Below are positions 13,417-31,923 of a stretch of 64,000 nt of DNA, piece by piece. Below the pieces are notes generated by a model that saw only the letters and a list, made by a program, of their open reading frames with translations, was not told the DNA's origin and ran no database searches. The stretch's first letter is position 1. Each line of letters starts with the position of its first letter. Source of the stretch: Candidatus Omnitrophota bacterium (GTDB lineage Bacteria; Omnitrophota; Gorgyraeia; Gygaellales; Profunditerraquicolaceae); contig JAKLGJ010000003.1 in assembly GCA_022710715.1 (NCBI GenBank), positions 89,083-153,082 of the forward strand. The letters run 5' to 3'. Both the position numbers and the translations under genes were made by a program.

Positions 13417-13442
13417 GTGTGCCTCCCTCTTTAAGGATAGTT

Positions 13443-15173: not shown

Positions 15174-15444
15174 AGTCTCTTCCTTTCGTTTAATGTTGTT
15201 ATCCACCAGGGTTCTATAGTAGCTTAAAGACAAATAAAGTAAAGTGGCCGTTTCCACTTTTTATTGACTTTCTTCCACTTGAATTATTGGCGTATCCGAC
15301 TGCGGTTGAGTGGGATTTAAACCTGCTGAAAACGCTTTCAATATGACAATTGTAGCATAAAATCAGCCAAAAAACAAACTTATTTATAAACTTTTTACTA
15401 ACCACCGGCTTAGCCTGAATTATTCGAAATTCTAACCATCACCC

Positions 15445-15473
15445 TTGACAAGTTGGCTTTCAAAGGTTATACT
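15445..15473 (+). promoter_or_regulatory. Near-consensus sigma70 promoter TTGACA-N17-TATACT for the first PEP-CTERM gene
   Basis: TTGACA is at 15445-15450 and TATACT at 15468-15473. The track's ORF start at 15453 lies inside this promoter, which supports the downstream start at 15510. Confidence 0.5.
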
Positions 15474-15509
15474 TGCTTTATGAAAGCGTTTTCAAACCAA
15501 AGGACAAAA

Positions 15510-16028
15510 ATGATCAAACAATTACGTCTTGCCCTGCTCTCTTGCGCCGCGCTGGCGTGCCTGTCCGGTAACCTCAATGCATCAGAGCCTTTCTACAGGA
15601 TGTGGATGACCGATGCGGAAAACGTGGTCCCCACCGAGAACGTCGAGGTTTTCAACGGCACTACCCCCTGGGTCTACATCCGCTACATGGGCGACCGGAA
15701 TTCAGATGACGTCATCGGCCCCGGAACCATCAAAACGTTCTGGACCTGGGACGGCACACCCGTTGATATTACCTATAATATAACCACTTCCGGGAATAAG
15801 AATGACTTCTGGATCCCCTTCAATGAGACCTCATTCGGAACAATGGCCGCCGGTAACTGGACAGTAACGGCAACCTCGACCCTTTTTACCTCCGGTAAAG
15901 TCAAAACTTACTTTGATTCGAAAACCTTCAAGCTCAACCCGGTTCCCGAACCGATCAGTTCATTTCTCTTTCTCACCGGCGGTTTAACCATGGCCTTTGG
16001 TCTTAAACGCGGCAAAAGGAAAAAATAA
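15510..16028 (+). CDS. Secreted PEP-CTERM-sorted protein (exosortase substrate)
   Basis: Signal peptide MIKQLRLALLSCAALACLSGNLNA. The C-terminus is PVPEPISSFLFLTGGLTMAFGLKRGKRKK, which is a PEP motif plus a TM helix plus a basic tail. Confidence 0.75.
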   Translation: MIKQLRLALLSCAALACLSGNLNASEPFYRMWMTDAENVVPTENVEVFNGTTPWVYIRYMGDRNSDDVIGPGTIKTFWTWDGTPVDITYNITTSGNKNDFWIPFNETSFGTMAAGNWTVTATSTLFTSGKVKTYFDSKTFKLNPVPEPISSFLFLTGGLTMAFGLKRGKRKK

Positions 16029-16204
16029 TGATAAATAAACTCTTTACTCTTCTTTACGCTTTTGTTGGCCTCCTGTTTTTTCTTACCAGCCAGGCGCTGG
16101 CCATGGAACAGATCGCTCCGGAACCGGTGAGCACCACTCTTTTTCTGACAGGCAGCGGAGTTTTGTTCGTTGCCGCGAGGTTGCGCGGAAAAATAAAAAA
16201 ATAA
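16028..16204 (+). CDS. 58-aa mini PEP-CTERM protein, a signal peptide directly fused to a PEP-CTERM anchor
   Basis: It is not in the ORF track. I translated it by hand as MINKLFTLLYAFVGLLFFLTSQALAMEQIAPEPVSTTLFLTGSGVLFVAARLRGKIKK*. The start overlaps the upstream stop (TAATG). A strong terminator follows. Confidence 0.55.
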   Translation: MINKLFTLLYAFVGLLFFLTSQALAMEQIAPEPVSTTLFLTGSGVLFVAARLRGKIKK

Positions 16205-16218
16205 GATTTTTCCTTCCC

Positions 16219-16252
16219 GGGGGAGGCTCTGTCCTCCCCCTCTTTTTTTTCT
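16219..16252 (+). terminator. Rho-independent terminator
   Basis: GGGGGAGGCTCTGTCCTCCCCC followed by TCTTTTTTTT. Confidence 0.75.
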
Positions 16253-16404
16253 ACTCTGACCGCCTTCTGAAACAAGAAGAAAAAAGTCAATAAAAAGTGG
16301 AAAAAAACTATTGCTTAATTCGGCTTTTCTGCTATTATAGAAGCAATTAGCGGTCATCACTGATGGATGACAAGTTCTTTTTTCCTAAACAAAGGCAGGT
16401 CGAT

Positions 16405-16968
16405 ATGAAAAAACTGATCGTTTTCTTGTTCTGCGCCATCACGTTCGTTTTAGCTTTATCTTCTTCGGCTTCCGCTATAACCGCTGAAGTCAGCGATTAT
16501 TTCCAGATCATGATGACCAACACTCCCGGCGTTGTGCCGAGCGTCTCGCAGGAAAACTTCGACCTGGGCGAAAAACCCTGGCTCTATTTGAGCTTCTATG
16601 ATGGCGTGGGCTCGTTCGAGGATATTGGCTTCAGCGTGACCGGTTCATTCTGGACGTTCGAAGATTCGGATCCGGCAAAGACCTATCTCAAAACAAAATT
16701 CGGCGACACCAACGACCTGTGGATCAGCTTTTCGGACAGTTACTGGAATTCCATCGAGAAAGCCGGGAACTGGACCGTGGAGGCATTCTCGCTGGTTCAG
16801 GCAATACAGGACGATGTCAAATCCGCTTGCGGCAACTGCTGCAACTGGCAGTCCTTCAAAGGCGAAATCGGATTCAAAGTCAATCCCGTCCCGGAGCCGA
16901 TTTCCACCCTGCTCTTTCTCGTTGGCGGCGGCACACTGTTCGCCACCGGCAGGCTGCGCAAAAGCTAA
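16405..16968 (+). CDS. Secreted PEP-CTERM-sorted protein
   Basis: Start at MKKLIVFLFCAITFVLALSSSASA, with a TTGCTT-N16-TATTAT promoter-like site at about 16311-16345. The C-terminus is PVPEPISTLLFLVGGGTLFATGRLRKS. It is a paralogue of 15510-16028 (shared FWT.ED/NDLWISF motifs). Confidence 0.75.
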   Translation: MKKLIVFLFCAITFVLALSSSASAITAEVSDYFQIMMTNTPGVVPSVSQENFDLGEKPWLYLSFYDGVGSFEDIGFSVTGSFWTFEDSDPAKTYLKTKFGDTNDLWISFSDSYWNSIEKAGNWTVEAFSLVQAIQDDVKSACGNCCNWQSFKGEIGFKVNPVPEPISTLLFLVGGGTLFATGRLRKS

Positions 16969-17018
16969 TCGGGGACGTTCCCCAAGGTACCACCCCTGCA
17001 ACAATTAGCAGGATGTAC

Positions 17019-17050
17019 ATCAAAAAAAAGGAGGCGTCAGCCTCCTTTTT
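17019..17050 (+). terminator. Rho-independent terminator
   Basis: GGAGGCGTCAGCCTCC followed by TTTTTATTT. Confidence 0.75.
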
Positions 17051-17128
17051 ATTTATAGATCCATTCAGAGAAAATTGATAACCATTGGCCCCCTCAAAAG
17101 GGGGAGCAATCCAACCAGGAGGTAATTA

Positions 17129-17683
17129 ATGTGTAAACGTTTGTTTTTCGTACTCTGCATTTGCGCAACGATTTTGTCTCTTTCAACCCTGGCTTTCGCC
17201 AAGAACCCCAACAGCAACGGCGCAGATAACGGCGGCGGCAACGGAATCGTGGACATCTTCATGACTTCCGATTACGATGTCTTCACCCCGCAGCCGAGTT
17301 TCCACGAAGACGAAACTCCCTGGCTGTACTTGAAACTTCAGGATTCGGTTACCCAGGTCACCGGCAACTGGTGGTTCTGGAATAAAGGGAACCAGGATTG
17401 GGCGGCCTCCTTTGATACCGCCAACCTTGATCCGCTGGTATGGGAATCCCATTCGTCCGACAATAGCGACGGCACCAAGAACCTCTGGCTGACCAGGCTG
17501 GATATCGATGACGCCGTGGCGCATGATCAGTGGTGGCACATCAACAACGTGCACACTTCCTGTCCTAATGGCGGCGGATCGACCAAGTACCACGTTACTC
17601 CCGAGCCTATCAGCTCATTATTGTTTTTGATCGGCAGCGGCGCGATGTTCGCCGGCGCGCGCATGCGTAAAAACCGGGCGTAA
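17129..17683 (+). CDS. Secreted PEP-CTERM-sorted protein
   Basis: AGGAGG RBS. Signal peptide MCKRLFFVLCICATILSLSTLAFA. The C-terminus is VTPEPISSLLFLIGSGAMFAGARMRKNRA. Confidence 0.75.
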   Translation: MCKRLFFVLCICATILSLSTLAFAKNPNSNGADNGGGNGIVDIFMTSDYDVFTPQPSFHEDETPWLYLKLQDSVTQVTGNWWFWNKGNQDWAASFDTANLDPLVWESHSSDNSDGTKNLWLTRLDIDDAVAHDQWWHINNVHTSCPNGGGSTKYHVTPEPISSLLFLIGSGAMFAGARMRKNRA

Positions 17684-17720
17684 CCCTGACGGATCATCTG
17701 CCTGAAGCAGACAACTTAAC

Positions 17721-17753
17721 AAGAAGGACGCTTCCGTACGAAGCGCCCTTCTT
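17721..17753. terminator. 14-bp stem hairpin between convergent genes, a putative bidirectional terminator
   Basis: AAGAAGGACGCTTC-CGTA-CGAAGCGCCCTTCTT. The U-tracts are weak on both strands. Confidence 0.4.
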
Positions 17754-17776
17754 GTTTCCTGCAGCAACAGCAGCTC

Positions 17777-18445
17777 CTACCCTGCCTTCATTCTCCTCGC
17801 AACACCCAGCACGCCTGCGCCCAACCCGAACAACACCATACTCACCGGTTCAGGCGTAGTCGTCACTTTCAGGTACGGCCGTAATTCCCGGCCGGTATAT
17901 TCCGATGCATAGAACCGGGCGTTCAACTCGTTATTCATCGCGTCCAGATTATTTTCCAGGACAAAGCCGTAATTCGCGCTGCCCTGGGCCCAGGCGTTCA
18001 GAGTCGGTTCTATCCCCTTCCATTGCCGCCAGCCCTCCACCGGATCGCCGATCCCCAGAGAGCTTACGGCCACAGCTTCATAGGCCGGTCGGGTATTCCA
18101 GGTAATGCCTGATTCGCTCCACGCCTGCGTCACCGCGTGCAGGTTAAGCGCATCCCCGGGTGAATTCGTTCCGGAATACTCGTAGGCGAACAACGACGCG
18201 GACTTTATTGTCTGCCCCCGCAATACGCCCAGGTCAGCCTCGCTGAACTTAAGATACGCTTCAGCCAGGCCGGAACGGTCCCGGACCGTCATATACGTAT
18301 TGTTACCGTAATTAACCTCGGGGCTGGCGTCATTCACCCAGGCATCCTCTGACGGCCAGAAGACGTACTCCTGGTCTGCCTGCGCTTGTCCCGTCCAGAC
18401 CGCGCACCAACAGACCAGCCACACCCACAATCGCAGCTGCTGCAT
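17777..18445 (-). CDS. Secreted PEP-CTERM-sorted protein (222 aa)
   Basis: AAGGAGG RBS. Signal peptide LRLWVWLVCWCAVWTGQAQA. The C-terminus is TTPEPVSMVLFGLGAGVLGVARRMKAG. Confidence 0.75.
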   Translation of the reverse strand: MQQLRLWVWLVCWCAVWTGQAQADQEYVFWPSEDAWVNDASPEVNYGNNTYMTVRDRSGLAEAYLKFSEADLGVLRGQTIKSASLFAYEYSGTNSPGDALNLHAVTQAWSESGITWNTRPAYEAVAVSSLGIGDPVEGWRQWKGIEPTLNAWAQGSANYGFVLENNLDAMNNELNARFYASEYTGRELRPYLKVTTTPEPVSMVLFGLGAGVLGVARRMKAG

Positions 18446-18631: not shown

Positions 18632-21600
18632 CTACGGGTTTGCCTGGTAATCGCGGTAATTGGAATAAATTTCGGCGAGAATCCGGTGAGCCTGTTCTTC
18701 CAGAAGGATCGGACGCGCGTCGTGGAATAAACTCTGATAATCCGAGTCGCGGATAAGCTGATATGCCCCGAACACAAAATACACATTCTTCATCTGCTCG
18801 GGATGATCCAGGAACCACTGCATTTCATGAGAAGTCACCGATCCCTGCTCCACCTTGCTGTCCCCGAGAACAGCCTCGGGAACAAAGAACACGATCGGCC
18901 TGCCTTCAGAGGTGATCTCATTCAAATAACGGGTGGTATGATCTTCCCGATCTCCGTAGCGCCGGTCATATTCGGACATCCATTCTTTTAGATCTCCGGC
19001 TAAAGCCAGGGCTGAATAATCGTCCTGGGAATGGTACGTAGTGATCCCCAGCGCTTCCCCGTCCCGGTTGCGGAAGCTCGCCAGATTCTCGAGATAATCA
19101 TATATGGATATGACCCCTGCGGATTTTGCGCGCATAGCTGCAATCTGCGCCGCAGACAAACCGCTCAACTGCACTTCCCGCTCAAAATCCACCGGCTGCA
19201 GGATCGCATGATCGGCCTGCGCCAGCCGCTGCTGCACATAATCCGGCCGGTTTTCCACTTCGATCCGGAATAACGCGCGCCCGGCTTCGCTCTGGGCAAG
19301 CCTGATGAGTTGATCCTGCGACAAAAGCGACTTCAGCTCTTGAGAGCTCTTACCCGAAACCTGCAACTGCGCCCGTATAACATCCGGGGCCTTTCCGGTC
19401 AGCTCTATAATCGTATTGATCGCCAGATTCCTGTCTTCTCCGGTGGACGTGAACGCCTGCTCGACAGCCACTTTGGCTAACGGCGTTATGCCGGGTATCT
19501 GCGGCACGACGGTTGATTGTTTAACTTCCGCGCGCCCCTGATTTACCGTTTCTTCAAGCCTGGCGATCTGCGCGCTGATCTCCGCGTCGATCTTCACCGC
19601 TTCTCTCTGACCGGCTTCGGAGCGGATACTCGCGGCATTGCTCACCGCTCTTCGCTGCTGCAACTGCTTCAACCGCGCCAGTTCCCCTTCCGCCTGTTTC
19701 ACCTGCGCTTCAGTTGGCCCGCCGAGGCAGGCGGCAGCAATACTTCCGGCCCTTTCCACAGTCACCTCAACACCCTGATCTCTCAAAGCTTTCTGCATCT
19801 GACTGGCGAGATCTTTACCGCTCAAAGAAGCTCCGGACATTTGCTGGGCTATGGTATCGATCGCTTCATCGCTAAGACCGCGCAATGGATTGTCAGGATT
19901 GCTGCTGGCGCGCACGAACCGGATACCCCGGTCAAAAATATCTCTGCGGTTTTCTAATTGCGGACGATACGCTGAAGAATAATAATCAAGCACATTCTTA
20001 TGTGTACCGGCAAGAATAGCTTGTCTGATCGCATCCGCGTTCTGCGTAAGATGCGCATAGAAATCGTCCGTAACCACTCCGGACAAAGAAACATAATTTT
20101 GTGAAAGTGCGGGATTTTTCTCAATCATATCTTTCATAGCTTTACTACTTGCAATCAAATTACTGGTCATGCGACGGGAAATATCCATGGAGTCGACCGT
20201 GGAAAGATAATCCGACATCTCCCTTTCGACAAAGGTATCCAGCTGCGCCCTGTCTACATTTTCGCGGAGTTCCTCCGCTATCCCGGAATAAACAAAATCC
20301 GCCCAACCCCGGGCATCGTACTTCTGCGTTAATGGATTGGCACGCATATCTTCCGGGAAAGCATTGTCGAAATCGGATAAAGCGATATGTTTTCCGCTTT
20401 CCCTGCTGGTGACCGTTATTTCAGCGAGTTTTTCCAGATCAGCCAAAGGGCTCAAAACATTATACAGAGACCTCTTGGTCCCGATTTGCTTCAGGACATT
20501 ATTGATCTGATGAGGATCCTGCGCGTGCAGATACATCTTAAGCATATCGCTCACCGGAAAAGCCTTCGCTCGGATCAGCGTTTCCTGATCACCCATAATT
20601 GTTCCACCAATCAGCCAGTTTATCTTAATGAAAGAACCTCTTCCTGTTTTCATTTGTCCGGAATCTACAAATGCGGAAATTTCGTTAAGCGCATCTTGAG
20701 TATCCTTGTTCTCGAGCGATTGAGGACGCTCGCCTATCTGCCGCACAAAACGCAATACCGCGCGATAATCAAAATCTCCGCTCTTGGTCAAGCGTAAATT
20801 ATTGTTAAGAACGTCCTGCTTATAGCTTCCTCCGGTCTCATCGGTAATTTTCCAGCCTCCTTCATTATCACGATAAATACTCAACCGGTCCAGGGTAGCC
20901 GCTTTATTTCTTATCCCGCTATACTGGGACTCCACCACATATCCTTCCAGATTGACGATATCGGCATGCACTCCAAAGGTTTTCTCGATCTCCTGTTTAA
21001 AATCCCGTAACGCGCCCATCTCATCTTCCGTCAACACCACGTTGGCTGTTGCGGAAGGTCGCACGATAAGGTCGATATCGGAATAACCGTTGTCCTGTTT
21101 GCCGCCAAGCACCATTCTGCGCGCCGTCCCTCCGCCAAAAGCGATCTCCAATCCTTCGAATTCCGCCCTGGAGGCAATTTCTGCGATCATCGGGCTGATC
21201 TCAATTGAAACGCTGCTCTGATCCGGGAACCGCGCATCTGCTCTTACGTTACCGGCTTCAGGCTGTTGGAATGAAGGAACATTTGCGCCATTGAGCCCTG
21301 CGCGCCCGGCAATTGCCGTTGCCATATTCTGCAGGACCCGGTCCATCTGCTCCGCCGACACCTCGATATTCTGGCGCACCGCGCCGCTGGGCATCTTCTC
21401 ATTGATCCCGACATTGACCCCAAACACGGATACATCCGTACGATCTCCGCTATTGACCACCGAACCTTTGGAATAATACTTACTGAAAAAATCGCCATCC
21501 CTGGGCAAGCCCAGAGAATCTTTATAAAATTGTTCCAGCACTCCGATCATATCCTTAGTATAAACGTTGCCCTCGTATTCTTCTCCCAGAAAACTCTTGC

Positions 21601-24600
21601 CGTTCGCATTTGGTTTCTTGAGATTAATGAAGTTATCATGCAGAGTTTGCGCAAGTTCCTGCGCATCCCGCTGCCGGGTGACCGGATTGTTCAACCGCTC
21701 GCACGCGGCTTGCGCGTTTTTCTGCGCGAAGGCCGAAAGACGCTCGATTTCCGGCCCGTCGAAATGCCTGCCCATATTCTCGTTCATCCGGTCGAACGGG
21801 ATATCCTTATCGCTCAACCAGTGTATCGCGCCGTCCGATCCTTGAGTGCCGACCCTGACATCAAAAAGGTACATGCTGCCGTCCCGCTCAACCCGATACA
21901 CGCCGTCAAGGTCCGGCAGTTTGACACCGATAAATGTGACGAACACCTCGTTGATTTTCTCCGTGATTCCGGCTGCATCCTTTGCGCCCCGGATATACAT
22001 TGTTGTGCTGGAGGCGTAATCCATGTGATTATGGAGCAAAGATTCCAGCGCGCCTCTCACATCATTTTCCAGAAGCGAACGTTGCTGCGCGGCATCCCTA
22101 TCCCCGGCAGGTGCTATCCCTGCGCGCTGCGTGATATATTCGCCCAGATTTCGCAGGATCCTATCCATAGCCTTACGGTCCAGGTTCGTGGTCCGCACCA
22201 CGCCGGCTGCGGTCATCTCAACCTCGCCGACTGTAACCCCCAGAATGCCGGTCGTCTGGCGATCTCCAACATTTACCACCTGCCCCTCATGATTAAACTG
22301 ACTATTCAAAAGAAATCCATTTCCAGCTGGAGGTAATCCCAATTCTGTTTTATAGACCTCTTCTAAGCGCACAAGAACATCGGTAGGATGGACGTTTCCA
22401 CGGAAGAACTCTGGCTTACCGGCATATTTTTTCTGGAAATCACTTTCTATCTGCGGCAAAAGAGTATCTACGATTCTATCTCTGAATTGCGGACTCTGCA
22501 GATTGACCACCGCTTGCTGCGCTGCCGCCACAACCTGCGTTTTCATCCGCTCAAGAGACGTGCCGCTGAAAGTTTCCGCGATATTCTTATTCATCGTTGC
22601 AAAATCGATCTGGGCATCCGGCAGCCAATTGATCCTGCCATCAGCCTGTCGTTGCCCGGACAGAACGTCAAATACATAAACATCTCCTGTTGCATCAACA
22701 CGCATTAACTTTTCATTGAAGCCGTTGATGACCCCTGAAGGTAAACGAACTGCGTTAAGCAATACTGACTCTATTCTCCCGACCGGGTCAACCGACGGTT
22801 CACGCAGGATACCGACTAACCATTGCCCGGTTTTATTGTTACTATCCTGCAGAGTAACCAGTCTGTGCTCCAGGTCTCTTTCTATCGGCAATGACGTTTC
22901 TTCCGGAACCGGCGCCGTCGCTCTGTTCAACAGCCGGGAGGCTATAGACTGAACTCTATCCATTATCGAAGTGCCTTCTGCAACGGAGTTTTTCTCGACT
23001 CCAGCGGCGCGCGGAACAATCGGCCCGCCCAAGCACAAGGTAATGATGCCGCCTGCTTCAGACTGGGATAGCGGCGTGCCGCGCTGCTCCATATACTCCA
23101 TCAGCACCCGCTCATGCGTGCCGTAATCCGCGCGGGTCAGCCTCGAAGCGAGATCGCCGATCTCTCCGGAACTCAGATCCTTCAAGCGCGAATTCGCCGT
23201 CCCCTGTTCGAACTCCAACCCTCTCCTGAACACATCGTTACCCGAATTTTTCTTCTCGCCCGGAGACAGGCGCATCCCGGCGCCGGAAGCCCTGTTGATC
23301 ACCTCTTCTATGGCGAAATATATCCCGCTGCTGGTCCCGATCATCTCGTAATAATTCTGTGCCGCCCGCCCCAGAGCCGGATCGAGCGCGTTCGCTCTTT
23401 CCGCCAGAGCCGCGTACTCTTCGTATTTGTGCGACCATTCCCGATCCAGGGAAATTCCCGGAGACAGATTCTCGCCGATGAGCACGTCGCGGGTATCGCG
23501 CACATACGGCTTCAGCGCTGCCACAAAATCCTCGATCTGCTGCGCGCCCGGCCGTTCGCTTAAATACACGGTAACCGGATCATACCGGTCATACCAGTGT
23601 CCGGCTGTTGCGGGAGTCTTGTACCGGTTGACCAGTTCCGGGTATTTAAGCATAAATCCGTCCAGGGACTCGATCAGCCCTTCCTGCGCCAGGGCATTGA
23701 CGGAAAAACGCCAATCAGTTCCCGAGATATCCGCAGTATCGCGATCAGCCGGAAGCCGGTAGATGAACCCTTCGCCGGCATAGGTAGAAACAACTTCCTC
23801 TCCATTGACCAGACGCGGTTTAGACGCTCTATCGGCTATCGCAGGATCCTCGGAAGGCCGCGGGTTGTAAGAAGTGTGGCGCGCAGAGGAATACAGATCG
23901 CGGATAAAACGGCTATACATGCTCTGCGCATTATGCGGAACCCCGTATGCCTGGGACATATAATCGTAGCTCCATTCCGGGTCGCTCCTCGATCTGTCGA
24001 TATAATCGCAATATTCCTGAATCGCTCTTACCCGGGCTGTCTGGTGCTGCGGATAATCCGCTTCTGCGGATAAACTGTTGCTCCATGCCTCTTCGGCTGT
24101 CTGCCTCTGCGTCTTAATCACGGCCGGTTTATCTTTAGCGGGGGCGGTCTGCGCTTGCTGTTTGCTGCCGGCCGCCTGTTCGCCGCCCGCTGCCTCTGAC
24201 GCGCCGGCAGGCGCCATTTCGAGATCGATCAACCTGTTTGTTGCCGGGATAACCTCGGGCATGCGCCTTTCATTGTCGACCTGCTTTTGCGGCTGCGGCT
24301 CGGCGCTTGCAGAAGACGTCCGACTGCCGGAGACAGGCCGGTTCGACAATGCCTCGTCGTACGCTACCCGCGCCGAAGTATCTTTGCCGATGCGCTCGTA
24401 CGCCCAGTTGATGTCGATCATTCTTTCGGAACCTGCGGGATTCACGTCCGGGTGATACTGCTTGGTCTGCGCGCGGTAAGCTTTGTTTATTTCGGCCGGA
24501 GTTGCATCCCGGTTCACCTTGAGAATATCGTACGCCGACTCGCCGTTGCGATACACCTCTGCGTCAGTCGGCCGCACTGCCGAATCCGCCGGCCGGTCAA

Positions 24601-27600
24601 GACTGACGCTGCCGCCGTAGCGAGGAATGGCGAAGAACGGCAGCCAGCCCAGCAATTGGGCGTCCTGTTCGGTCATACCCAGCGTAGATTGCGTGACATC
24701 GTTGAAGAGCAAAGCGTTGGTCCCGGCGGTAAAACCGCTGAAGAACACCGCGTCATCCACGCTGCGCAGGAATGCGCCGGGCGTGGTCGGGAACATGGTC
24801 AGCCAGCTCTTCTGCACCGCGCCTTCTCCGGCGCTGGTCAACTCGCGTCCCAGAAGCGTTCTGGCCGTGCCGCGAAAATATCCATACGTCCCGGTATTTT
24901 GCGCCCACCGGGCGATACGGCCGGTACCCGCGGGATCCCATGTGGATGTAGTCAATCCCGCGACCTCGGTCAACGGACCCAGCCATAAGCCGGTATCTTT
25001 AGGAGAACTCGCCGCGCTCAACAACAGGTCCTGATACCAGGGCAGGCCTTCTTCGCCGTGCGGCCCGATCATCTCATCCGCAGACCAGTCGCCGGTGGTC
25101 AAACCCTCCCAGACATTGCCCAATCCCCAACCCACGGTATGGAACACCGGACCGACGAACACGAACGAACCCGCGCCGCGCAAAGAATCCGCTGCCAGCG
25201 TTTCCGGAGCCAGCGCATACGCGCCCAGCCGGCTGTCCACTCCCAGCAAATACCTGCCGGCCATCTGGCCGGTGCCGGATTCCGTACCCAATAAATAATT
25301 ACCCGCTCTGCCGGCAACGCCGGTCAATCCCAGTCCCTGCAATCCGGCGCTGAAGATAAATCCCTGGCCGTAGCCGTGACGCGCCGACTGCACCGTATCT
25401 TCCAGACTCGAAAGTCCCTGACCGCTGATCAAAGAATAGGCGTTATCCGAAGCTGCGGACACGCCTGCCCAGACCGCTCCGGAACGGGCAGCGCCCTGGA
25501 TCAATTTTCCTGCCTGCATACCCCGGCTGCCTGCGGCGAAAATCTCCTCACCTGCGCTCGACAACGCTATGCCGGTTTCCGCGGTGCCTCCCAGAATATC
25601 CGCTACCTGCATGCTCCGGGAGCCGATAGCCAGCGCCTCGTCGCCGATCAACGGGCTGACCAGCGTCAAAACCAGCGCCGCATCCGATGCCAGGTCCATC
25701 CAGGTATACGTCTGGGGTGTGAAAGTATAACTGGCCGTCGCCAGCGGATTTTTATTCACGCCGGCAGACACTACGGAAGACTGCCCGGAAGCATTCGCTG
25801 TTTCAGTATACGCATTCCATTCGGAAGAATCGATAAAAACCGAGGGGATCGCTCTCAAAGTAGTGATGCTCAACGGAGCGGGAATGCTGTTGATCAGCCC
25901 CGCGTTATACGCTTGATCGCCGGAATTAAGCAACGCCGGATCGACCGGGTTTTCATCGAGATACTGCTGCACATTATCCATTACGGATTGATCCACCACT
26001 GCGTTCATCTGGCCGCTGATCGTCGCTGATGCGCCCGCCCAGCCCGAAGCCAGACTTACCCAGAAATCGCCTTCAGCCTGGCCGAGCAGATACTGCGCGA
26101 CTACCGCTTTATGCTGCCGCTGCGCGCCGGTCTCTTCGGGCAGATCATTCCAATAGGTATACGCGCCCATCACGTCCGCCGCCTGGCTGTCTGACGGGCG
26201 ATAGCTGGCCACGAATTCTCCCTCGGCATTGAGCTCGTACCCCAGGCTCTGCGTCACCACGCTGATCTCATTGGGCAAAGTCACCAGAGAGCTCGGCTTG
26301 AGCATATCCGGGCTGACCCAGCCGGTGCGCTGTTTTCCGCTGCCGTCGGTATAGGTAACCATCACGTTGCCGTAGATGAAATTGAACATCCCCGGGTCAT
26401 CCTGGATCGCCTGCTGGCTCACCGGATACATTTTGCTGCCGTCGCTGCCGGCAACCGTCACGTTCACCGTGCCCTGGTACGTTCCGGGAATAGTGGTCGA
26501 GAATGAAACCCCGTCAATGCTGATCACGTCGGGATTCAACGCGTTATTGGCCGCCTGCGCCCCTTCCTGCATGCCATTGGCCCAGCCGCCGGTGATACCG
26601 CCGATAACCGCAGCCAATCCGATGTTCAGCTGCTCAACCAGCCCGGGAGCGCTCTGATGCCCGACCATAGAGGCCACGTTGCCCTGCGCGTCGAGAGTAA
26701 TAGTCACCTGCTTACCGGGATCCTGGCTATCGGTCAAAATGATAGTCGTATCGCCAATAACTTCTATCTCGGTCTGGCTGCTTAGAGCCATGGATTGTCC
26801 GTTGATGTTCAAGTACTGCACCGGGGCGTCCGCTTCAGTGGACCGGCTCACCGACACATGCTCGGACATAGCGGCGACCGAATAGTCCGTCCCATTACTG
26901 CTCACTACCGCTCCCTGCGCGTCTGTGGAATAAACGATAGCCCCGGAAGGATCCAGGACCACGGCATGGCGATTTTCATCATACTGGCCGGCAAGCTTAC
27001 CCTGTTCATAAACCTGTATCAGCGTCCTGCCGTTGGCGTCCGTGGTGACAAACTCGTAATTCTGCGCGTCCAGGTAATTCCGGTATTTTCCGGAAGCGCC
27101 GGTGGAATCCTGAACCGTCCACGGCGTGCCGTCATCCTTATACAGCGTGGTCACCGTGCGAGTACTGCCGTCGGGATTAGCCAGATACGTATACTGTTTG
27201 AACGGCACGAACTGTTGCTGGCCGTTGGCGTTGGTGATGGTATACCCCTCGGTAACGCTCTGGGTGTGCTCTGCGCCGACAGCATCGTAACTTTTCACGG
27301 TAATACGATCAGAGGTGCGAATAGTCGTGGTCCGGCTGGCCGGATCGAAAATCCCGGCAGTCAGCATATCGTTTATATTCCTCGCGCTTTGATTGATCTG
27401 ATTATTGATCTGCTGCATGGTCCCTGCGCCGGTTCCGGGAATTGCCGCCGCGGCCTGCAGTATGCCGATAGTGCGCACCTCGGCATTAACGTCATCGGCG
27501 CTGTAATATCCCGCTGGCGTGGCCATGCCCTGGGTCTGGCCGTTGACGGTCAATATTCCATCCGTAACCACATAGGCCGTTCCGTCCTGGCCTTGCAGGG

Positions 27601-30600
27601 TCAGGGTATTTCCGTCGGATGTCGAGCCGGCAACCATGATCTTACCCAGGCTGCCGTCGGCAGTGCGCTGATAATATGCGCCGGTGTTCTTATCCTTATA
27701 GAGCTGGCCGCGGTCGTCGACCGCGATCATGGTCGTGCCGGAACTTGAAGCCAGCGTATCGAGTACGGACTGGGGCAGGGACTGTCCGGTCTGACCTTCG
27801 TAGGTGCTCTGGAACAATAATCGGATCTCTCGATCGGAAAGCGGCTGGCCGATGCTTTCCTGAAAAGCTATGGTCTGCGCGACAGCCGCAGCCACGCCGT
27901 TATCCGCAGGCTGGTTGAGGATCGGCTTGAATGCCTCGATCTGCGTGCCGTCCGGATTCCTGCCGCCGGTGGCTGAAAGTATCGCCAGCAGATCCATAGT
28001 CGCTCCGGTATCTCCGGCATTTGATCCCGCGATCAATCCCGGCAAAACATAATTATCCCGGTAATAGGGATCATCCAGAGCGTTCTGCAAAGGCTTGAGG
28101 CTTTCGATGGTCGTGCCGTCGGGATTCTTGCCGCCGGTCACCGCGTAAACATAATTAAGCTGCTGCTGCGCGCCGACGTCGCCTCCGGCAGCTTTTTCCT
28201 GCAGATCAGGCACCAGGTAATAATCCCGGTAATACGGGTTGTTGGCGTCTGCGGCAAGCTGGCGTTCCTCCAGCGTCGGTTCGGACCGGGCAGGAGAACG
28301 GGCTTGCTGATCCACTGCTCCCCAGGACATAAAACCGAATGAGTTTCCGTTGTAAGACCATCTTCCCTTACCGAGCAGCCCGGCGCTATCTTTGCGGATG
28401 GTCAGGGCGGAGCAGGATGCGCCGATCTCCGGGGTCTGTCCGGGAACCAGGATCGCCTGCAGCGGAACGTAAAAAGTCTGATCATCGGCGCTGAAGGTCA
28501 CATTCGCATAGCGCACGAAATCCGGGATGATCACCTGCCCGTGTTCGTCCGTCGCCGGATCGGCGCTTAATCCCATCAAACCGGTTATTTCTTCCATACC
28601 GATATCTGCCGCAGCCAGATCGCTGGACTTGACCACTTTCCAGGTCCCTTCCTCTCCTTCGAATGGAGACGGCACGTAGACCGCGGAATAAACCAGGCCG
28701 GTGACATCATATTGCTTGCCGTTGATGGTAGCCGTACAGGTTTGTATCTGATCCGCGCCTTCATAATTATTGGCCTGCCAATTTGAGACGTTCGATTCGG
28801 ACAGAGCTACGGCGCACGCAAGAATATCCTGGCTGGGCGGCAGCTGATGATACGTATAGGTATACAGCCATAAAGCGGCGTGCTCCAGCTGCGGAGTCCA
28901 TACCAGAGGATTGTCTAGAGAAATGGTAACACCGGCCGGCGCCTGTTTGGATTCGTCTATTCTTACTTTAGCCACGACTCCGTTGTCGATACTCACCCAG
29001 GACTGGCTGTTGCGGTCGAGAAAATTCACGTTCTTCGGTACTGTTCCGTCCGCGCCGAGGCTGAAATCCGCGTTCGCGGTAAGCACCGTACCGTCGGCAA
29101 GGCCGAAGGCATCGCCTTTTTTATAGCCGGTCTGCAGGAATTGGCCGTCGGCTTGAGCAACCCATTGCCGGCCGTTGGAGGTGAATGCGGTGCCGGCAGG
29201 GATCACCCCGTTGGCTGCGTTAAAATCTTTAGCTGCGGTAAGGACGGTTTTGTCGTTCAGGGTGATGGTGTCGCCGGCTTTATACGACGTCTGCACGAAT
29301 CCCACTGCGTCGTGAATGGTATAGTCCTGCATGTCGCGCGGACCATTAAGACATGTCCAGGTCCTGCCCTGCTCGTCGGTTAACACCGTTCCCGAAGGCA
29401 TGGCGATACTGCCGGCGCGCGAAACCGCCATCGTACATGACTGGGTGGCGGTCAAAGTAACTCCTTCGGCTATTTCGAAGGTATCTCCCGGTTTGACGGT
29501 CAGATTGACCATTCCGCCTTCGGTGGACGCCCATTGATTGCCTGCGGCATCCACGTAATTGGAAGTTTTATTATTCCCGGGTTGCGAGCGTAGCACGGTG
29601 CCGTCGACAAGTGTAATAACCGCAGTCCTGGAATTCCCGGTTTCCGTGGAGGCTACGGCAACCGGCGCGCGCAAAGGCATATCGGCCCAGGCGATGTTGC
29701 CGGATCCCGGAACGATATTCCCCACGCCTGCCACGCGCAGGGTTCCTTCGATATTCAACCCGGTTGTTTTAGAAAGAAGCGCATCGGGAATGCGGGAATC
29801 GGCGGTCAACACAGGATAATCGCGGAATGCGGTTGCGGGAGAAACGGTATTTGCCGGATCGGCTGCGTCCGGGTTTACTGCCGTGGCTTTGCCGAGCATC
29901 CGGGTGACGGTTTCCGGCTGCATCTGCCTGATGATCGCGTTTGCCTGCTTCAACCCGAGATTCTCATGCTTGAGCAGGCTGGCGCCGATAGCGGTCTCCA
30001 CATGATCCATGGCCGGACCGGCCTTTTCCGCCTGCATCGCCTTAAGGATGGACGCCGCTCTGGGCAAACCTTGATTTGCCGCCGCGACGCTATTTAATAC
30101 TTTACCTGCGGTTTCCGGCTGAAGAGAGTTCATCATCTCTCCGGCCCGGGACAGATCAAGCGTGGGATCGGCGATAATCTTTGCGATCACATTCGCAGGC
30201 ATCCCCTGAAGGATGGACGCGAGATGCTGTTTATCGTTTAGCAGCTCCATCACCGACACCGCTTTGGGCGTTTCGACCGAAGCGATGAGCATTCCGGCTA
30301 TTTGAGTATCCATCTGCCCGAAAACTTCCGCCAGCGCCGGCGGTTCGAATGATTTGCTGTTGATAATGTCTACCGCGTTCTGCGTGCGCATATTCTCCAG
30401 AATAGTCGCGGCCTGTCCCGGATCGGTCATCTGCGCAAGGATCGCGGCGGAATTGCCGGGTGTGCCGGCGGCAAGGATATCCGCGGCTTTGTTCGCCCTG
30501 ATCTCTCCCATGATCCGCGCGGCCTGGTTGTTCTGGACCTGCCCCAGGATAGCAGTGGCGGTATCAGTGGTAATCGCATCGTTATTGAGGATCGACGCGG

Positions 30601-31546
30601 CTTTCTCTGCGGACAACTGGGTCAGGATCTGGCCGGCCAGTGCGGCGTTGCCGGATTGCGTCATGCTGCTGATCACCGCGGCGCCGATCGCCGGCGAAAC
30701 GGAACTGATCATCGTGACCTGCTGGGCCATGGACGCCTGTCTCATCGTGGCCAGGGAATTCAGCAGATTGACGTCGGCTTGATTTACTACGGAATCCGCA
30801 TTGAGATCCATGCTCGCGGAAACCACACCCGAATTGACAGAACTGGTAAATGTGGAGACATCCGCGCTGTTGAACACCGCGTTGCCGTCGAAATCGAGCT
30901 GGCTGGTGAGGGTGGAATTCGGCTGCCAATTGCCGGTGCTGACCAGATTATACGATGATGTGTTCATCACCGAAGAAAATGCTGTATTAGAAAGTGTGGC
31001 ACTGGAAACCGTGCCGGTCTGGACATTGGACAGAATATCGCGGTTAAACGATCCTTCGATGGTTGACCCCGCGCGCGTAGCAAAATCGAATCTATCGCTC
31101 ATGATGCCTGCGTCCGCTGCCGTGGGCATAATGGGAGTAAACCCGCCCAACGCTTCCGAAGGAATTACCGGTTTAAATGTATCGGTTATGCTTACGCCGG
31201 CGAATCCCGCATCGGATAATCTTACATTAGCGAAACTCGAGATCGATTCAGAAGGAATACTTGGCTTGATAATATTATCCGCCTTATAAGAGTCGAGTAT
31301 CGGGCTTGAGTAAGAAATCGGGCTGTCCGTGAATTTGGAGGCCAGGGAACTGGGGCTGACGAAACCCGAACCGGAGTAAGATGGAATAACGCCGCCGGTA
31401 TCCCCGCTTCCGGAGGTCTGATCGGAAGAACTGCTAAGCTGAATCCCCAGGGGGCCTTCAAGCGCGGAACTGGAATACTGGATAAAAGGATTAAAGGTGA
31501 GCAGCAACGATAAAAACAGGCTGCAGATTTGGCGTAATGCTCTCAT
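18632..31546 (-). CDS. Giant secreted multidomain protein A1, about 4300 aa (4335 aa from the track's start at 31639). It contains a dockerin-like motif, MgtE-N-like repeats, the family A core, a J domain, tandemly duplicated modules of about 200 aa and an NTase motif.
   Basis: I prefer the start at the ATG at 31546, which has an AGGAGA RBS and begins directly with the signal peptide MRALRQICSLFLSLLLTF. The track's 31639 start has no RBS and lies inside hairpins. Domains read from the translation: dockerin-like DxNxDxxVN repeats at about 30760-30905; MgtE_N-like A..IL..M repeats at about 30200-30760; the core shared with A2 at about 24560-25920 (EEGLPWYQDLLLSAASSPKDTGLWLG); a J domain with HPD at 24349-24560; tandem modules at about 21300-22710; and an NTase motif GGGTARRMVLGGKQDNGYSDIDLIV at 21041-21140. 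Confidence 0.8.
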   Translation of the reverse strand: MRALRQICSLFLSLLLTFNPFIQYSSSALEGPLGIQLSSSSDQTSGSGDTGGVIPSYSGSGFVSPSSLASKFTDSPISYSSPILDSYKADNIIKPSIPSESISSFANVRLSDAGFAGVSITDTFKPVIPSEALGGFTPIMPTAADAGIMSDRFDFATRAGSTIEGSFNRDILSNVQTGTVSSATLSNTAFSSVMNTSSYNLVSTGNWQPNSTLTSQLDFDGNAVFNSADVSTFTSSVNSGVVSASMDLNADSVVNQADVNLLNSLATMRQASMAQQVTMISSVSPAIGAAVISSMTQSGNAALAGQILTQLSAEKAASILNNDAITTDTATAILGQVQNNQAARIMGEIRANKAADILAAGTPGNSAAILAQMTDPGQAATILENMRTQNAVDIINSKSFEPPALAEVFGQMDTQIAGMLIASVETPKAVSVMELLNDKQHLASILQGMPANVIAKIIADPTLDLSRAGEMMNSLQPETAGKVLNSVAAANQGLPRAASILKAMQAEKAGPAMDHVETAIGASLLKHENLGLKQANAIIRQMQPETVTRMLGKATAVNPDAADPANTVSPATAFRDYPVLTADSRIPDALLSKTTGLNIEGTLRVAGVGNIVPGSGNIAWADMPLRAPVAVASTETGNSRTAVITLVDGTVLRSQPGNNKTSNYVDAAGNQWASTEGGMVNLTVKPGDTFEIAEGVTLTATQSCTMAVSRAGSIAMPSGTVLTDEQGRTWTCLNGPRDMQDYTIHDAVGFVQTSYKAGDTITLNDKTVLTAAKDFNAANGVIPAGTAFTSNGRQWVAQADGQFLQTGYKKGDAFGLADGTVLTANADFSLGADGTVPKNVNFLDRNSQSWVSIDNGVVAKVRIDESKQAPAGVTISLDNPLVWTPQLEHAALWLYTYTYHQLPPSQDILACAVALSESNVSNWQANNYEGADQIQTCTATINGKQYDVTGLVYSAVYVPSPFEGEEGTWKVVKSSDLAAADIGMEEITGLMGLSADPATDEHGQVIIPDFVRYANVTFSADDQTFYVPLQAILVPGQTPEIGASCSALTIRKDSAGLLGKGRWSYNGNSFGFMSWGAVDQQARSPARSEPTLEERQLAADANNPYYRDYYLVPDLQEKAAGGDVGAQQQLNYVYAVTGGKNPDGTTIESLKPLQNALDDPYYRDNYVLPGLIAGSNAGDTGATMDLLAILSATGGRNPDGTQIEAFKPILNQPADNGVAAAVAQTIAFQESIGQPLSDREIRLLFQSTYEGQTGQSLPQSVLDTLASSSGTTMIAVDDRGQLYKDKNTGAYYQRTADGSLGKIMVAGSTSDGNTLTLQGQDGTAYVVTDGILTVNGQTQGMATPAGYYSADDVNAEVRTIGILQAAAAIPGTGAGTMQQINNQINQSARNINDMLTAGIFDPASRTTTIRTSDRITVKSYDAVGAEHTQSVTEGYTITNANGQQQFVPFKQYTYLANPDGSTRTVTTLYKDDGTPWTVQDSTGASGKYRNYLDAQNYEFVTTDANGRTLIQVYEQGKLAGQYDENRHAVVLDPSGAIVYSTDAQGAVVSSNGTDYSVAAMSEHVSVSRSTEADAPVQYLNINGQSMALSSQTEIEVIGDTTIILTDSQDPGKQVTITLDAQGNVASMVGHQSAPGLVEQLNIGLAAVIGGITGGWANGMQEGAQAANNALNPDVISIDGVSFSTTIPGTYQGTVNVTVAGSDGSKMYPVSQQAIQDDPGMFNFIYGNVMVTYTDGSGKQRTGWVSPDMLKPSSLVTLPNEISVVTQSLGYELNAEGEFVASYRPSDSQAADVMGAYTYWNDLPEETGAQRQHKAVVAQYLLGQAEGDFWVSLASGWAGASATISGQMNAVVDQSVMDNVQQYLDENPVDPALLNSGDQAYNAGLINSIPAPLSITTLRAIPSVFIDSSEWNAYTETANASGQSSVVSAGVNKNPLATASYTFTPQTYTWMDLASDAALVLTLVSPLIGDEALAIGSRSMQVADILGGTAETGIALSSAGEEIFAAGSRGMQAGKLIQGAARSGAVWAGVSAASDNAYSLISGQGLSSLEDTVQSARHGYGQGFIFSAGLQGLGLTGVAGRAGNYLLGTESGTGQMAGRYLLGVDSRLGAYALAPETLAADSLRGAGSFVFVGPVFHTVGWGLGNVWEGLTTGDWSADEMIGPHGEEGLPWYQDLLLSAASSPKDTGLWLGPLTEVAGLTTSTWDPAGTGRIARWAQNTGTYGYFRGTARTLLGRELTSAGEGAVQKSWLTMFPTTPGAFLRSVDDAVFFSGFTAGTNALLFNDVTQSTLGMTEQDAQLLGWLPFFAIPRYGGSVSLDRPADSAVRPTDAEVYRNGESAYDILKVNRDATPAEINKAYRAQTKQYHPDVNPAGSERMIDINWAYERIGKDTSARVAYDEALSNRPVSGSRTSSASAEPQPQKQVDNERRMPEVIPATNRLIDLEMAPAGASEAAGGEQAAGSKQQAQTAPAKDKPAVIKTQRQTAEEAWSNSLSAEADYPQHQTARVRAIQEYCDYIDRSRSDPEWSYDYMSQAYGVPHNAQSMYSRFIRDLYSSARHTSYNPRPSEDPAIADRASKPRLVNGEEVVSTYAGEGFIYRLPADRDTADISGTDWRFSVNALAQEGLIESLDGFMLKYPELVNRYKTPATAGHWYDRYDPVTVYLSERPGAQQIEDFVAALKPYVRDTRDVLIGENLSPGISLDREWSHKYEEYAALAERANALDPALGRAAQNYYEMIGTSSGIYFAIEEVINRASGAGMRLSPGEKKNSGNDVFRRGLEFEQGTANSRLKDLSSGEIGDLASRLTRADYGTHERVLMEYMEQRGTPLSQSEAGGIITLCLGGPIVPRAAGVEKNSVAEGTSIMDRVQSIASRLLNRATAPVPEETSLPIERDLEHRLVTLQDSNNKTGQWLVGILREPSVDPVGRIESVLLNAVRLPSGVINGFNEKLMRVDATGDVYVFDVLSGQRQADGRINWLPDAQIDFATMNKNIAETFSGTSLERMKTQVVAAAQQAVVNLQSPQFRDRIVDTLLPQIESDFQKKYAGKPEFFRGNVHPTDVLVRLEEVYKTELGLPPAGNGFLLNSQFNHEGQVVNVGDRQTTGILGVTVGEVEMTAAGVVRTTNLDRKAMDRILRNLGEYITQRAGIAPAGDRDAAQQRSLLENDVRGALESLLHNHMDYASSTTMYIRGAKDAAGITEKINEVFVTFIGVKLPDLDGVYRVERDGSMYLFDVRVGTQGSDGAIHWLSDKDIPFDRMNENMGRHFDGPEIERLSAFAQKNAQAACERLNNPVTRQRDAQELAQTLHDNFINLKKPNANGKSFLGEEYEGNVYTKDMIGVLEQFYKDSLGLPRDGDFFSKYYSKGSVVNSGDRTDVSVFGVNVGINEKMPSGAVRQNIEVSAEQMDRVLQNMATAIAGRAGLNGANVPSFQQPEAGNVRADARFPDQSSVSIEISPMIAEIASRAEFEGLEIAFGGGTARRMVLGGKQDNGYSDIDLIVRPSATANVVLTEDEMGALRDFKQEIEKTFGVHADIVNLEGYVVESQYSGIRNKAATLDRLSIYRDNEGGWKITDETGGSYKQDVLNNNLRLTKSGDFDYRAVLRFVRQIGERPQSLENKDTQDALNEISAFVDSGQMKTGRGSFIKINWLIGGTIMGDQETLIRAKAFPVSDMLKMYLHAQDPHQINNVLKQIGTKRSLYNVLSPLADLEKLAEITVTSRESGKHIALSDFDNAFPEDMRANPLTQKYDARGWADFVYSGIAEELRENVDRAQLDTFVEREMSDYLSTVDSMDISRRMTSNLIASSKAMKDMIEKNPALSQNYVSLSGVVTDDFYAHLTQNADAIRQAILAGTHKNVLDYYSSAYRPQLENRRDIFDRGIRFVRASSNPDNPLRGLSDEAIDTIAQQMSGASLSGKDLASQMQKALRDQGVEVTVERAGSIAAACLGGPTEAQVKQAEGELARLKQLQQRRAVSNAASIRSEAGQREAVKIDAEISAQIARLEETVNQGRAEVKQSTVVPQIPGITPLAKVAVEQAFTSTGEDRNLAINTIIELTGKAPDVIRAQLQVSGKSSQELKSLLSQDQLIRLAQSEAGRALFRIEVENRPDYVQQRLAQADHAILQPVDFEREVQLSGLSAAQIAAMRAKSAGVISIYDYLENLASFRNRDGEALGITTYHSQDDYSALALAGDLKEWMSEYDRRYGDREDHTTRYLNEITSEGRPIVFFVPEAVLGDSKVEQGSVTSHEMQWFLDHPEQMKNVYFVFGAYQLIRDSDYQSLFHDARPILLEEQAHRILAEIYSNYRDYQANP
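24349..24560 (-). other. DnaJ-type J domain embedded in giant protein A1
   Basis: YDILKVNRDATPAEINKAYRAQTKQYHPDVNP...INWAYERIGKD. This has the canonical helix II-HPD-helix III pattern. I located the DNA by reverse-translating YHPDVNP at 24426-24446. Confidence 0.6.
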
Positions 31547-31564
31547 GCTTTCTCCTGATCGCTG

Positions 31565-31597
31565 AAAATAAAAAACCCAAGGCAGCGATACCTTGGG
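31565..31597 (-). terminator. Strong intrinsic terminator 8 nt upstream of the RBS of giant gene A1, a putative transcription attenuator
   Basis: Minus-strand CCCAAGG-TATCGCTG-CCTTGGG followed by TTTTTTATTTT. A second GC hairpin CCCGCTGCCAAATGCAGCGGG lies at 31631-31651, further upstream. Confidence 0.6.
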
Positions 31598-31796
31598 TGA
31601 AAAAAACGTTCCCTTTGGTAACGCAGCCTCCCGCTGCATTTGGCAGCGGGACTGTCGCTTTGCGCCCCCCGATTACTCGAGGTTTGCCTTTATCAGTAGA
31701 ACTCTTCTTCTACTTACCTATTATTACTATTATATTTCCAACATATTAAGTATAGCACATTTTTGCTAAATTTCAACCTTACCAATTGCACAATTA

Positions 31797-31923
31797 GCAG
31801 ACGTTTTCCCCATCCGCATGTGGCACATTGACTTACAAAGATATTGTTCCGCACCGCCAAATTGACGCATAAATAATATTTTTGTAACCAATTGCCGCAC
31901 ATGCGGATGGGGAAAGCGTCTGC
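31797..31923. repeat. 127-nt intergenic inverted-repeat element, copy A. The arms are about 29 nt (GCAGACG(C)TTTCCCCATCCGCATGTGGCA) around an AT-rich core.
   Basis: It starts 2 nt after the stop codon of giant gene A2. The other copies, also exactly 127 nt, are at 42787-42913 and 62687-62813. The cores of A and B are identical (ATTGACGCATAAATAATATTTTTG). Confidence 0.75.

Follow-up and report, generated by a model that had tools for sequence, protein, structure and literature searches.

The window analysed here is a stretch of 64,000 nucleotides from a Candidatus Omnitrophota bacterium (NCBI assembly GCA_022710715.1, contig JAKLGJ010000003.1, positions 89,083 to 153,082 of the forward strand). 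It contains a tandem run of giant genes, the last of which, here called G1, encodes a protein of 4,304 amino acids with a DnaJ-type J domain in the middle of its chain. The host open reading frame (ORF) occupies 18632-31639 on the minus strand and comprises 4,335 codons in a single uninterrupted frame over 13 kb. The ATG chosen by the ORF finder at 31639 falls within a riboswitch aptamer, an AGGAGA ribosome-binding site is found 6 nucleotides before the ATG at 31546, and a 4,304-residue product has been recorded by other gene callers, both in the representative library and in other assemblies. The true start is therefore probably the ATG at 31546. The initial annotation of this DNA gave the host protein about 4300 residues. 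Residue numbers follow the ORF at 18632-31639 unless they are said to be counted from the likely true start. The features of G1 and its leader, together with the neighbouring giant gene G2, are as follows:

31613-31697, minus strand: c-di-GMP-I-GGC riboswitch aptamer (Rfam RF03167; 60.2 bits, gathering score 59; E 5e-12; model positions 1-80 of 80)

31575-31598, minus strand: terminator-like hairpin and T-run, placed after the aptamer and ahead of the ribosome-binding site; a candidate expression platform

18632-31546, minus strand: giant gene G1, encoding 4,304 amino acids when translated from the likely true start; in the ORF finder's version it reaches 31639

31460-31546, minus strand: signal-peptide-like N-terminus, MRALRQ-ICSLFLSLLLTF-NPFIQYSSSA/LEG, with n, h and c regions and small residues at -3/-1 read from the sequence

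30758-30895, minus strand: dockerin-like calcium-binding loop pair, DFDGNAVFNSADV / DLNADSVVNQADV, sub-threshold

30071-30553, minus strand: MgtE_N/FliG_M-like helical repeats (PF03448, E 4.3e-13, four stretches; PF14841 weak)

24605-26842, minus strand: module common to G1 (residues 1600-2345) and G2 (residues 422-1253), found by BLASTP

24605-25717, minus strand: conserved core of the module, G1 residues 1975-2345, Gly/Ala/Ser-rich and predicted to be all-helical

24608-24628, minus strand: boundary motif I-P-R-Y-G-G-S at the end of the module, from a six-sequence alignment

24356-24535, minus strand: J domain, residues 2369-2428 (2338-2397 from the likely true start), from matches to Pfam PF00226 and to J domains in the PDB

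24446-24454, minus strand: HPD tripeptide, residues 2396-2398, right after predicted helix II, from the translation

24020-24355, minus strand: low-complexity linker following the J domain, about 110 residues long, in which Ala, Gln, Pro, Ser and Glu abound; read from the sequence

18632-24019, minus strand: orphan C-terminal region, about 1,800 residues long; its composition is cytoplasm-type and it contains two internal duplications

31926-42644, minus strand: giant gene G2, a 3,572-residue ORF with a signal peptide, a Peptidase_C39 domain, the module (38886-41381) and a cytoplasm-type C-terminal half

The segment at 24356-24535 translates to AYDILKVNRDATPAEINKAYRAQTKQYHPDVNPAGSERMIDINWAYERIGKDTSARVAYD, which is the J domain of G1. 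It matches the Pfam DnaJ family PF00226 over profile positions 2-63 of 63 with 47.7 bits (E 1.7e-12), the gathering score being 27.8 bits, and the match is far beyond chance. The initial annotation had placed a canonical DnaJ J domain with an HPD motif within 24349-24560 and had named PF00226 as the profile for comparison. That description is borne out by the profile match, by the PDB matches and by the translation, and the span encloses both the J domain and the HPD tripeptide. A phmmer search of all PDB chains returned 33 sequences, every one of them a J domain, with Caenorhabditis elegans dnj-12 (2och; E 8e-8) as the top match. The HPD of G1 aligns with those of dnj-12 and DNAJA1, and the core positions of helices II and III line up with those of solved J domains. 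A low-confidence AlphaFold2 (AF2) model, built from an alignment without J-domain depth and with a per-residue confidence (pLDDT) of 35-58 in this region, has the order helix-helix-loop (HPD)-helix-helix. The NCBIfam models for DnaJ, TopJ, DjlA and CbpA match G1 partially, through the J-domain segment only. TIGR02349 is matched at positions 3-82 of 354 (47 bits against a cut-off of 377), the TopJ model at the J domain (E 2.2e-7; 29.8 against a cut-off of 300) and the DjlA model at the HPD region, with CbpA and the other DnaJ models likewise partial.

Neither the Gly/Phe region nor the zinc finger of class A/B DnaJ proteins was found in G1, and its J domain is accordingly placed in class C. The position of the domain in mid-chain, the Ala/Gln/Pro-rich linker that follows it and the partial family matches also argue that G1 is not a class A/B DnaJ. 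Judged by its sequence, the domain is a genuine class C (J-domain-only) co-chaperone module, for which Hsp70 activation is predicted. J-domain activity can be measured in a simple assay, for which HPD to QPD is the classic null mutant. The J domain is thus ordinary in sequence and rare in its setting. When it was used with its flanks as a query, two word-sharing candidates and no homologue were returned.

The composition of G1 changes from secreted-type to cytoplasm-type exactly at the J domain. Lys and Arg together make up 5% of residues 32-2345. In residues 32-1975 and in the core module (1975-2345) they account for 5.3% and 4.9%, while Ser, Thr, Asn, Gln and Gly make up 39% and 38%, respectively. 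Residues 2346-4335 contain 11.2% Lys and Arg and 14.2% Asp and Glu. Among proteins of the same window, Lys and Arg amount to 3.3% in the secreted TpsA and 6.5-8% in PEP-CTERM proteins, and to 12.4% in a cytoplasmic hydrolase and 12.6% in the receiver-domain segment of a further giant, G3. Because the switch falls at the J domain, the domain heads the cytoplasm-type half and is not embedded in exported-type sequence. The proposal that a J domain lies inside a secreted protein therefore stands in part: the N-terminus is signal-peptide-like and the first ~2,300 residues are of secreted-type composition, but the J domain itself opens the other half.

The first 29 residues of G1 look like a Sec signal peptide in their n/h/c layout, and they form the sole transmembrane (TM)-grade hydrophobic segment of the protein (score 0.3 on a crude Hessa-type scale). 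The half that follows is rich in Ser and Thr and poor in Lys and Arg, and carries the dockerin-like loops, the MgtE_N-like repeats and beta-rich internal repeats. The Pfam Dockerin_1 match (E 0.73, 10.5 bits, profile positions 3-53 of 57) is a hint only. Residues 310-449 are repeated at 388-541. MgtE_N and FliG domains are best known from the cytoplasmic parts of magnesium transporters and of the flagellar switch, and their placement in an exported-type half is unusual. In the C-terminal region, residues 2980-3175 are duplicated at 3249-3449 and residues 2802-2921 at 3900-4027. This region has no detectable relatives in Pfam, NCBIfam, PADLOC, the PDB or an index of 5.8 billion proteins, the C-terminal 1,907 residues used as a protein-database query returned no homologue, and the linker at 24020-24355 has no family match. 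A motif at about 21100-21200 on the minus strand (residues ~3480-3510), GGGTARRMVLGG...SDIDLIV, resembles a nucleotidyltransferase head, such as that of poly(A) polymerases and CCA-adding enzymes. It was spotted by eye, has no profile support and gave a single-sequence AF2 pLDDT of 35, and we do not claim it as a nucleotidyltransferase.

Upstream of G1, a promoter-like sequence (TTGAAA-16-TATACT) at 31776-31749 lies ahead of the aptamer. From the order of these leader elements, G1 appears to be switched by a cyclic dinucleotide, the presumed ligand of this GGC variant.

Immediately before the J domain, G1 carries a module that it shares with G2. The two copies have 36-41% identity, with a BLASTP alignment of 36% over 854 residues (E 1e-107). 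A profile built from G1 and G2 retrieved seven proteins from 1.84 billion representative proteins, six of them true members: G1, G2 and four proteins from other metagenomes, P0003-P0006, all four of which are incomplete fragments. The seventh was a spurious repeat protein. No relative of the G1 and G2 module was found in any of 185,579 species genomes, a metagenome scan recovered only the P0003 contig, and a profile search of the PDB gave no match. The module is very rare. A query with residues 1600-2700 also returned nothing, at a threshold of 1e-5 that is too strict for the database-scaled E-value. The AF2 model of the module with the J domain, made from six sequences, is all-alpha with a pLDDT of 49. 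No TM-grade segment was found in the module of G1 on the crude Hessa-type scale, where its best scores are 3.5-4.4, whereas the clear TM helices of G3 and of a fourth giant, G4, score -1.4 to 1.2.

The module ends in a sharp boundary, with the family consensus F-x-x-[IV]-P-x-Y-[GST]-G. Every pairwise BLAST match ends there and the members are unrelated beyond P-x-Y-[GST]-G; the G2 equivalent of the motif lies at ~38886-38910. What follows differs in each protein. The J domain begins 23 residues on in G1, a PRTase-CE domain follows in P0003, a weak and sub-threshold DEAD/ResIII match (E 0.0024) in P0006, a P-loop-containing region without a family match in P0004, and an unrelated charged region of 2,300 residues in G2. 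A J domain was not seen in G2 or in the four incomplete fragments. The variable, cytoplasm-type half of G1 thus opens with the J domain, and among the few relatives seen only G1 has one. C39 peptidases cut after Gly-Gly. Given the C39 domains in G2 and P0004 and the Gly-Gly at the point where homology ends, the module boundary could be a candidate processing site. The residues upstream of the motif fit a classical double-glycine leader poorly. P0004 has a strong TM helix at residues 846-864, upstream of the module, and three C39 peptidase-like domains (residues 349-465, ~700-830 and ~2463-2592). These domains flank both the TM helix and the module, so that no simple topology fits, which mirrors the published difficulty of assigning compartments in such giants.

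Bacterial J domains act, to our knowledge, with ATP-dependent DnaK or HscA, which are present only in the cytoplasm. A J domain can work only where ATP and an Hsp70 are at hand, hence in a cytoplasm, and that of G1 heads a cytoplasm-type half, which may belong in the cytoplasm of the producer or in that of a target. The two roles suggested in the initial annotation, co-option of Hsp70 by the producer and an effector-like action on the Hsp70 of a host, are still the leading explanations. The reading we tentatively prefer is that the N-terminal half of G1 lies outside the cell and the C-terminal half in the producer's own cytoplasm, where a membrane-proximal J domain would recruit the cell's own DnaK. 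A Sec-type signal peptide would export the N-terminal ~2,000-2,300 residues, and the rare Gly/Ala/Ser-rich helical module would retain the chain at the inner membrane, so that the C-terminal ~1,990 residues stay in the cytoplasm. Because the J domain lies 23 residues past the module and is followed by a flexible linker of ~110 residues, it would be tethered near the membrane, at the membrane-proximal cytoplasmic face. Tethered J domains of this kind are a known design, as in DjlA, Sec63 and Pam18. The HPD loop would dock ATP-bound DnaK and trigger hydrolysis, loading DnaK onto nearby segments, most plausibly the emerging and folding 1,900-residue C-terminal region or partner giants. Since ~2,340 residues are synthesised ahead of it, the J domain could not help the early export of the N-terminal half. 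Action in cis would more plausibly benefit the ~1,900 residues behind it or partner proteins, which refines the biogenesis role suggested in the initial annotation. Transcription of G1 would be gated by the cyclic-dinucleotide riboswitch.

Several observations argue for this N-out/C-in arrangement. Bacterial J domains normally work in the cytoplasm of the cell that makes them. The composition switch coincides with the J domain, and G2 splits in the same way around the same module. Giants with cytoplasmic C-terminal parts also seem to be the local norm: in both G3 (3,418 residues) and G4 (3,023 residues), many strong TM helices precede domains of cytoplasmic type, a receiver domain (Response_reg) in G3 and a HEAT-repeat match in G4. 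The TM helix of P0004 precedes the module, and nucleotide-dependent domains follow the module in P0006 (the weak DEAD/ResIII match) and P0003 (PRTase-CE). The published picture of Omnitrophota giants fits as well. These have N-terminal extracellular parts, C-terminal anchors and intracellular SecA-like ATPase domains, which have been proposed to serve the giant's own biogenesis or self-secretion, and they include signal peptides with C39 and dockerin-type N-terminal parts; TM predictions for them are unreliable (bioRxiv 10.1101/2023.11.21.568195; 10.64898/2026.06.07.730766).

Other findings weigh against an N-out/C-in G1. The main weakness is that G1 has no classical stop-transfer helix on the crude Hessa-type scale, and a standard predictor might call it a fully exported protein with a signal peptide only. 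The AF2 model of the module is of low confidence. The absence of the J domain from G2, and its not being seen in the four fragmentary relatives, indicate that it is not a fixed partner of the module. Finally, total divergence past the boundary motif is more like what polymorphic cargo shows than what a conserved cytoplasmic apparatus would.

The main rival reading, rather unlikely but serious, is that G1 is wholly exported, that its C-terminal half passes into the cell of a prey or host, and that the J domain captures the Hsp70/DnaK of the target. The module would then be a translocation domain that turns from soluble to membrane-inserted, and the J domain would be the first part to emerge in the target, where it would either draw in the ~1,900-residue cargo and refold it, in the way that Sec63 and Pam18 act on the far side of a translocon, or subvert the target's chaperones in the manner of HopI1. 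G1 does have a signal peptide and no classical TM helix, and the module helices are only marginally hydrophobic, a property that suits a domain which has to remain soluble until it inserts. On the other hand, the strong TM helix ahead of the module in P0004 would put the module and cargo of that protein in the producer's cytoplasm. Conservation among all six members extends to P-x-Y-[GST]-G and then ceases altogether, which is a polymorphic-toxin layout. The cargo regions are orphans, P0003 has its PRTase-CE domain in the cargo position, and the C39 domains of G2 and P0004 could, speculatively, free the cargo at the Gly-Gly boundary. However, no toxin family was found in the cargo with Pfam or PADLOC, a cargo of ~2,000 residues far exceeds known polymorphic toxin tips, and no immunity-like gene follows G1 (a CBM96/PEP-CTERM gene does) or P0003, where the downstream genes are serA-like housekeeping genes. 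No known outer-membrane or target-entry machinery is linked to G1 either, the nearby TpsB being paired with its own TpsA. Omnitrophota have been proposed to be predators or parasites (bioRxiv 10.1101/2023.11.21.568195), and J-domain effectors are described in the literature (e.g., PMC6802931).

A more specific form of prey delivery, which we regard as unlikely, takes the module to be a new translocation domain behind which the J domain leads the ~1,990-residue cargo into prey and seizes the prey's Hsp70/DnaK as the import force. It would be a toxin-borne equivalent of the Sec63/BiP and Pam18/mtHsp70 motors, possibly with release at Gly-Gly by the C39 domain of G2.

It is improbable that G1 as a whole is exported to the cell surface, with a J domain that is a relic or a purely structural four-helix unit without an Hsp70 partner. 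The signal-peptide-only appearance of G1 would suit such a protein, ~9% of long Omnitrophota proteins are reported to be signal-peptide-only (10.64898/2026.06.07.730766), and a J domain unique to G1 in the small family seen is what recent domain accretion would leave. An unused domain should decay, though, and here both the HPD and the helix II/III core are preserved, with a match that spans the entire profile at 20 bits over threshold, in the midst of 1,990 residues of cytoplasm-type sequence.

Slightly less probable again is a G1 whose N-terminal hydrophobic segment is no export signal, the whole 4,304-residue protein being cytoplasmic or peripheral and its J domain an ordinary class C domain. 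The MgtE_N- and FliG-like repeats are usually cytoplasmic, and the signal peptide was read from the sequence by eye. Against this, the first 29 residues divide into n, h and c regions as a Sec signal does, and the N-terminal half is poor in Lys and Arg and rich in Ser, Thr, Asn, Gln and Gly, like the secreted proteins of the same window, and contains the sub-threshold dockerin-like loops. G2 follows the same plan: its signal peptide is succeeded by a C39 domain, an arrangement reported from Omnitrophota giants (bioRxiv 10.1101/2023.11.21.568195).

The probability that a mis-assembly or frameshift joined a small J protein to unrelated genes is close to nil, since the G1 frame is uninterrupted over its 13 kb, the sequence on either side of the J domain continues the frame of the conserved module, and the last 9,814 bases of G1, including the J domain and its junction with the module, are identical in three assemblies of different sources (JGI 3300010429, ENA ERZ27257456 and Logan SRR4244739), which excludes an assembly chimera and refutes this fusion, in favour of which nothing was found.

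The source organism is met again in six or more metagenome assemblies made independently (JGI, ENA, Logan and the NCBI metagenome-assembled genome (MAG) GCA_035916395.1), with identical proteins and with identical DNA over 9.8 kb. This recurrence is that of a widespread clonal population and not of a one-off bin.

By analogy, the preferred N-out/C-in G1 would work most like the membrane-tethered class C J proteins DjlA and, in eukaryotes, Sec63 and Pam18/Tim14, in which a lone J domain, free of a Gly/Phe region and of a zinc finger and tethered beside a membrane-associated segment localises the action of Hsp70; homology to these proteins is confined to the J domain. E. coli DjlA has 271 residues, one clear N-terminal TM helix and a C-terminal J domain. 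In contrast, G1 has 4,304 residues, a stretch from signal peptide to J domain in which the crude scale shows nothing of TM grade (best module scores 3.5-4.4), and a J domain in mid-chain, after a non-classical helical module and before 1,900 orphan residues. Among eukaryotic proteins, sacsin (~4,579 residues) and DNAJC13/RME-8 (~2,243 residues, with the J domain in mid-chain) similarly embed one canonical J domain in a chain of several thousand residues, presumably bringing Hsp70 to the place where the giant protein acts. Mycoplasma TopJ offers a functional parallel, as a J-domain co-chaperone dedicated to assembling a large adhesion apparatus, but its J domain is N-terminal and it is a separate polypeptide. 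HopI1, a type III effector of Pseudomonas syringae, has an HPD J domain beside a Pro/Gln-rich region, leaves its producer and engages a foreign Hsp70, whereas the delivery of G1 is hypothetical. HopI1 is also a small type III secretion substrate with a C-terminal J domain, while G1 has a Sec-type signal, no type III context and a mid-chain J domain.

G1 resembles the giants described from Omnitrophota ('Archaeovorin' and dockerin-type; West-Roberts et al. 2023 preprint) in its tandem genes of several thousand residues, its dockerin-like loops, its cytoplasm-type domains past an anchor and its built-in candidate biogenesis helper, SecA-like there and a J domain here. Those giants exceed 30,000 residues, however, whereas G1 is far shorter, and a linking module is not described for them. 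SecA_DEAD had no match in G1, G2 or P0003-P0006. We do not regard the relatives as carrying SecA-like domains, as the DEAD/ResIII match of P0006 is weak and sub-threshold and there were no PDB matches. Neither of the two preprints on Omnitrophota giant proteins mentions J domains, nor did the literature yield any report of such a domain in Omnitrophota or in a giant protein of bacteria.

With polymorphic and MARTX-type toxins, G1 and its relatives share a conserved body, a sharp boundary motif, unrelated C-terminal parts and a cysteine peptidase (C39 here, CPD in MARTX). They differ in having no toxin or immunity family and in a cargo about ten times the size of a typical toxin tip. No RTX, FHA, Rhs, PAAR, LXG or two-partner secretion (TPS) trafficking domain was found in G1 or G2 with Pfam and NCBIfam; the TPS domain of the window belongs to the separate 1,595-residue protein TpsA. 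As trafficking domain, toxin family and immunity gene were all not found, we do not file G1 as a polymorphic toxin in spite of the layout it shares with them.

The setting of the J domain is unusual and, as far as we found, undescribed: mid-chain in a riboswitch-controlled envelope protein of 4,304 residues, at the hinge of its two halves and beside a rare module. It touches on the question of how Omnitrophota and related uncultured bacteria make and fold proteins several thousand residues long and place them across the envelope. Should the C-terminal half indeed stay in the producer's cytoplasm, the J domain would be a second, independent self-help solution beside the SecA-like domains, one that recruits the general Hsp70 machine. 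If G1 is delivered to prey, it would be the first bacterial J-domain effector outside plant pathogens and would bring with it a new translocation module. Interest would rise sharply if prey delivery were shown, and would fall if the J domain simply lies in the producer's cytoplasm. Either way, the rare module and its sharp boundary motif mark the transition from exported-type to cytoplasm-type sequence in G1 and G2.

The giant genes, at least five in number, follow one another on one strand, across 31926-62507 and then G1 as the last; the contig that carries them (Ga0116241_10000002) measures 1.62 Mb. Their products have 2,893 (with a GH9 domain), 3,023 (G4), 3,418 (G3), about 3,430-3,572 (G2) and 4,304 residues (G1). 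The GH9-domain giant sits just outside the window (450-9131 of a further contig copy). G3 and G4 are paralogues, with 62% identity over their first 400 residues and with TM blocks in common. Directly downstream of G1, within 8629-18445, are the gene for the CBM96/PEP-CTERM protein, a cluster of genes for small PEP-CTERM proteins and a separate two-partner secretion pair:

13443-15257: TpsB

8629-13416: TpsA, 1,595 amino acids

Two palindromic elements of ~130 nucleotides (31797-31923 and 42786-42916) are near-identical where they can be aligned. Each lies just past the stop of a giant (G2 and G3, respectively) and upstream of the next one. Their arms of 52 nucleotides are 81% complementary. 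The elements drew spurious matches to miRNA precursors; they may be terminators or a small repeat family. The window has no marker gene, and its other genes suggest that the host probably belongs to Omnitrophota or to a closely related lineage of the PVC group. The Na+/H+ exchanger of the window has 60-72% identity to proteins mostly from Omnitrophota MAGs, and its syntenic best match is labelled Phycisphaerales.

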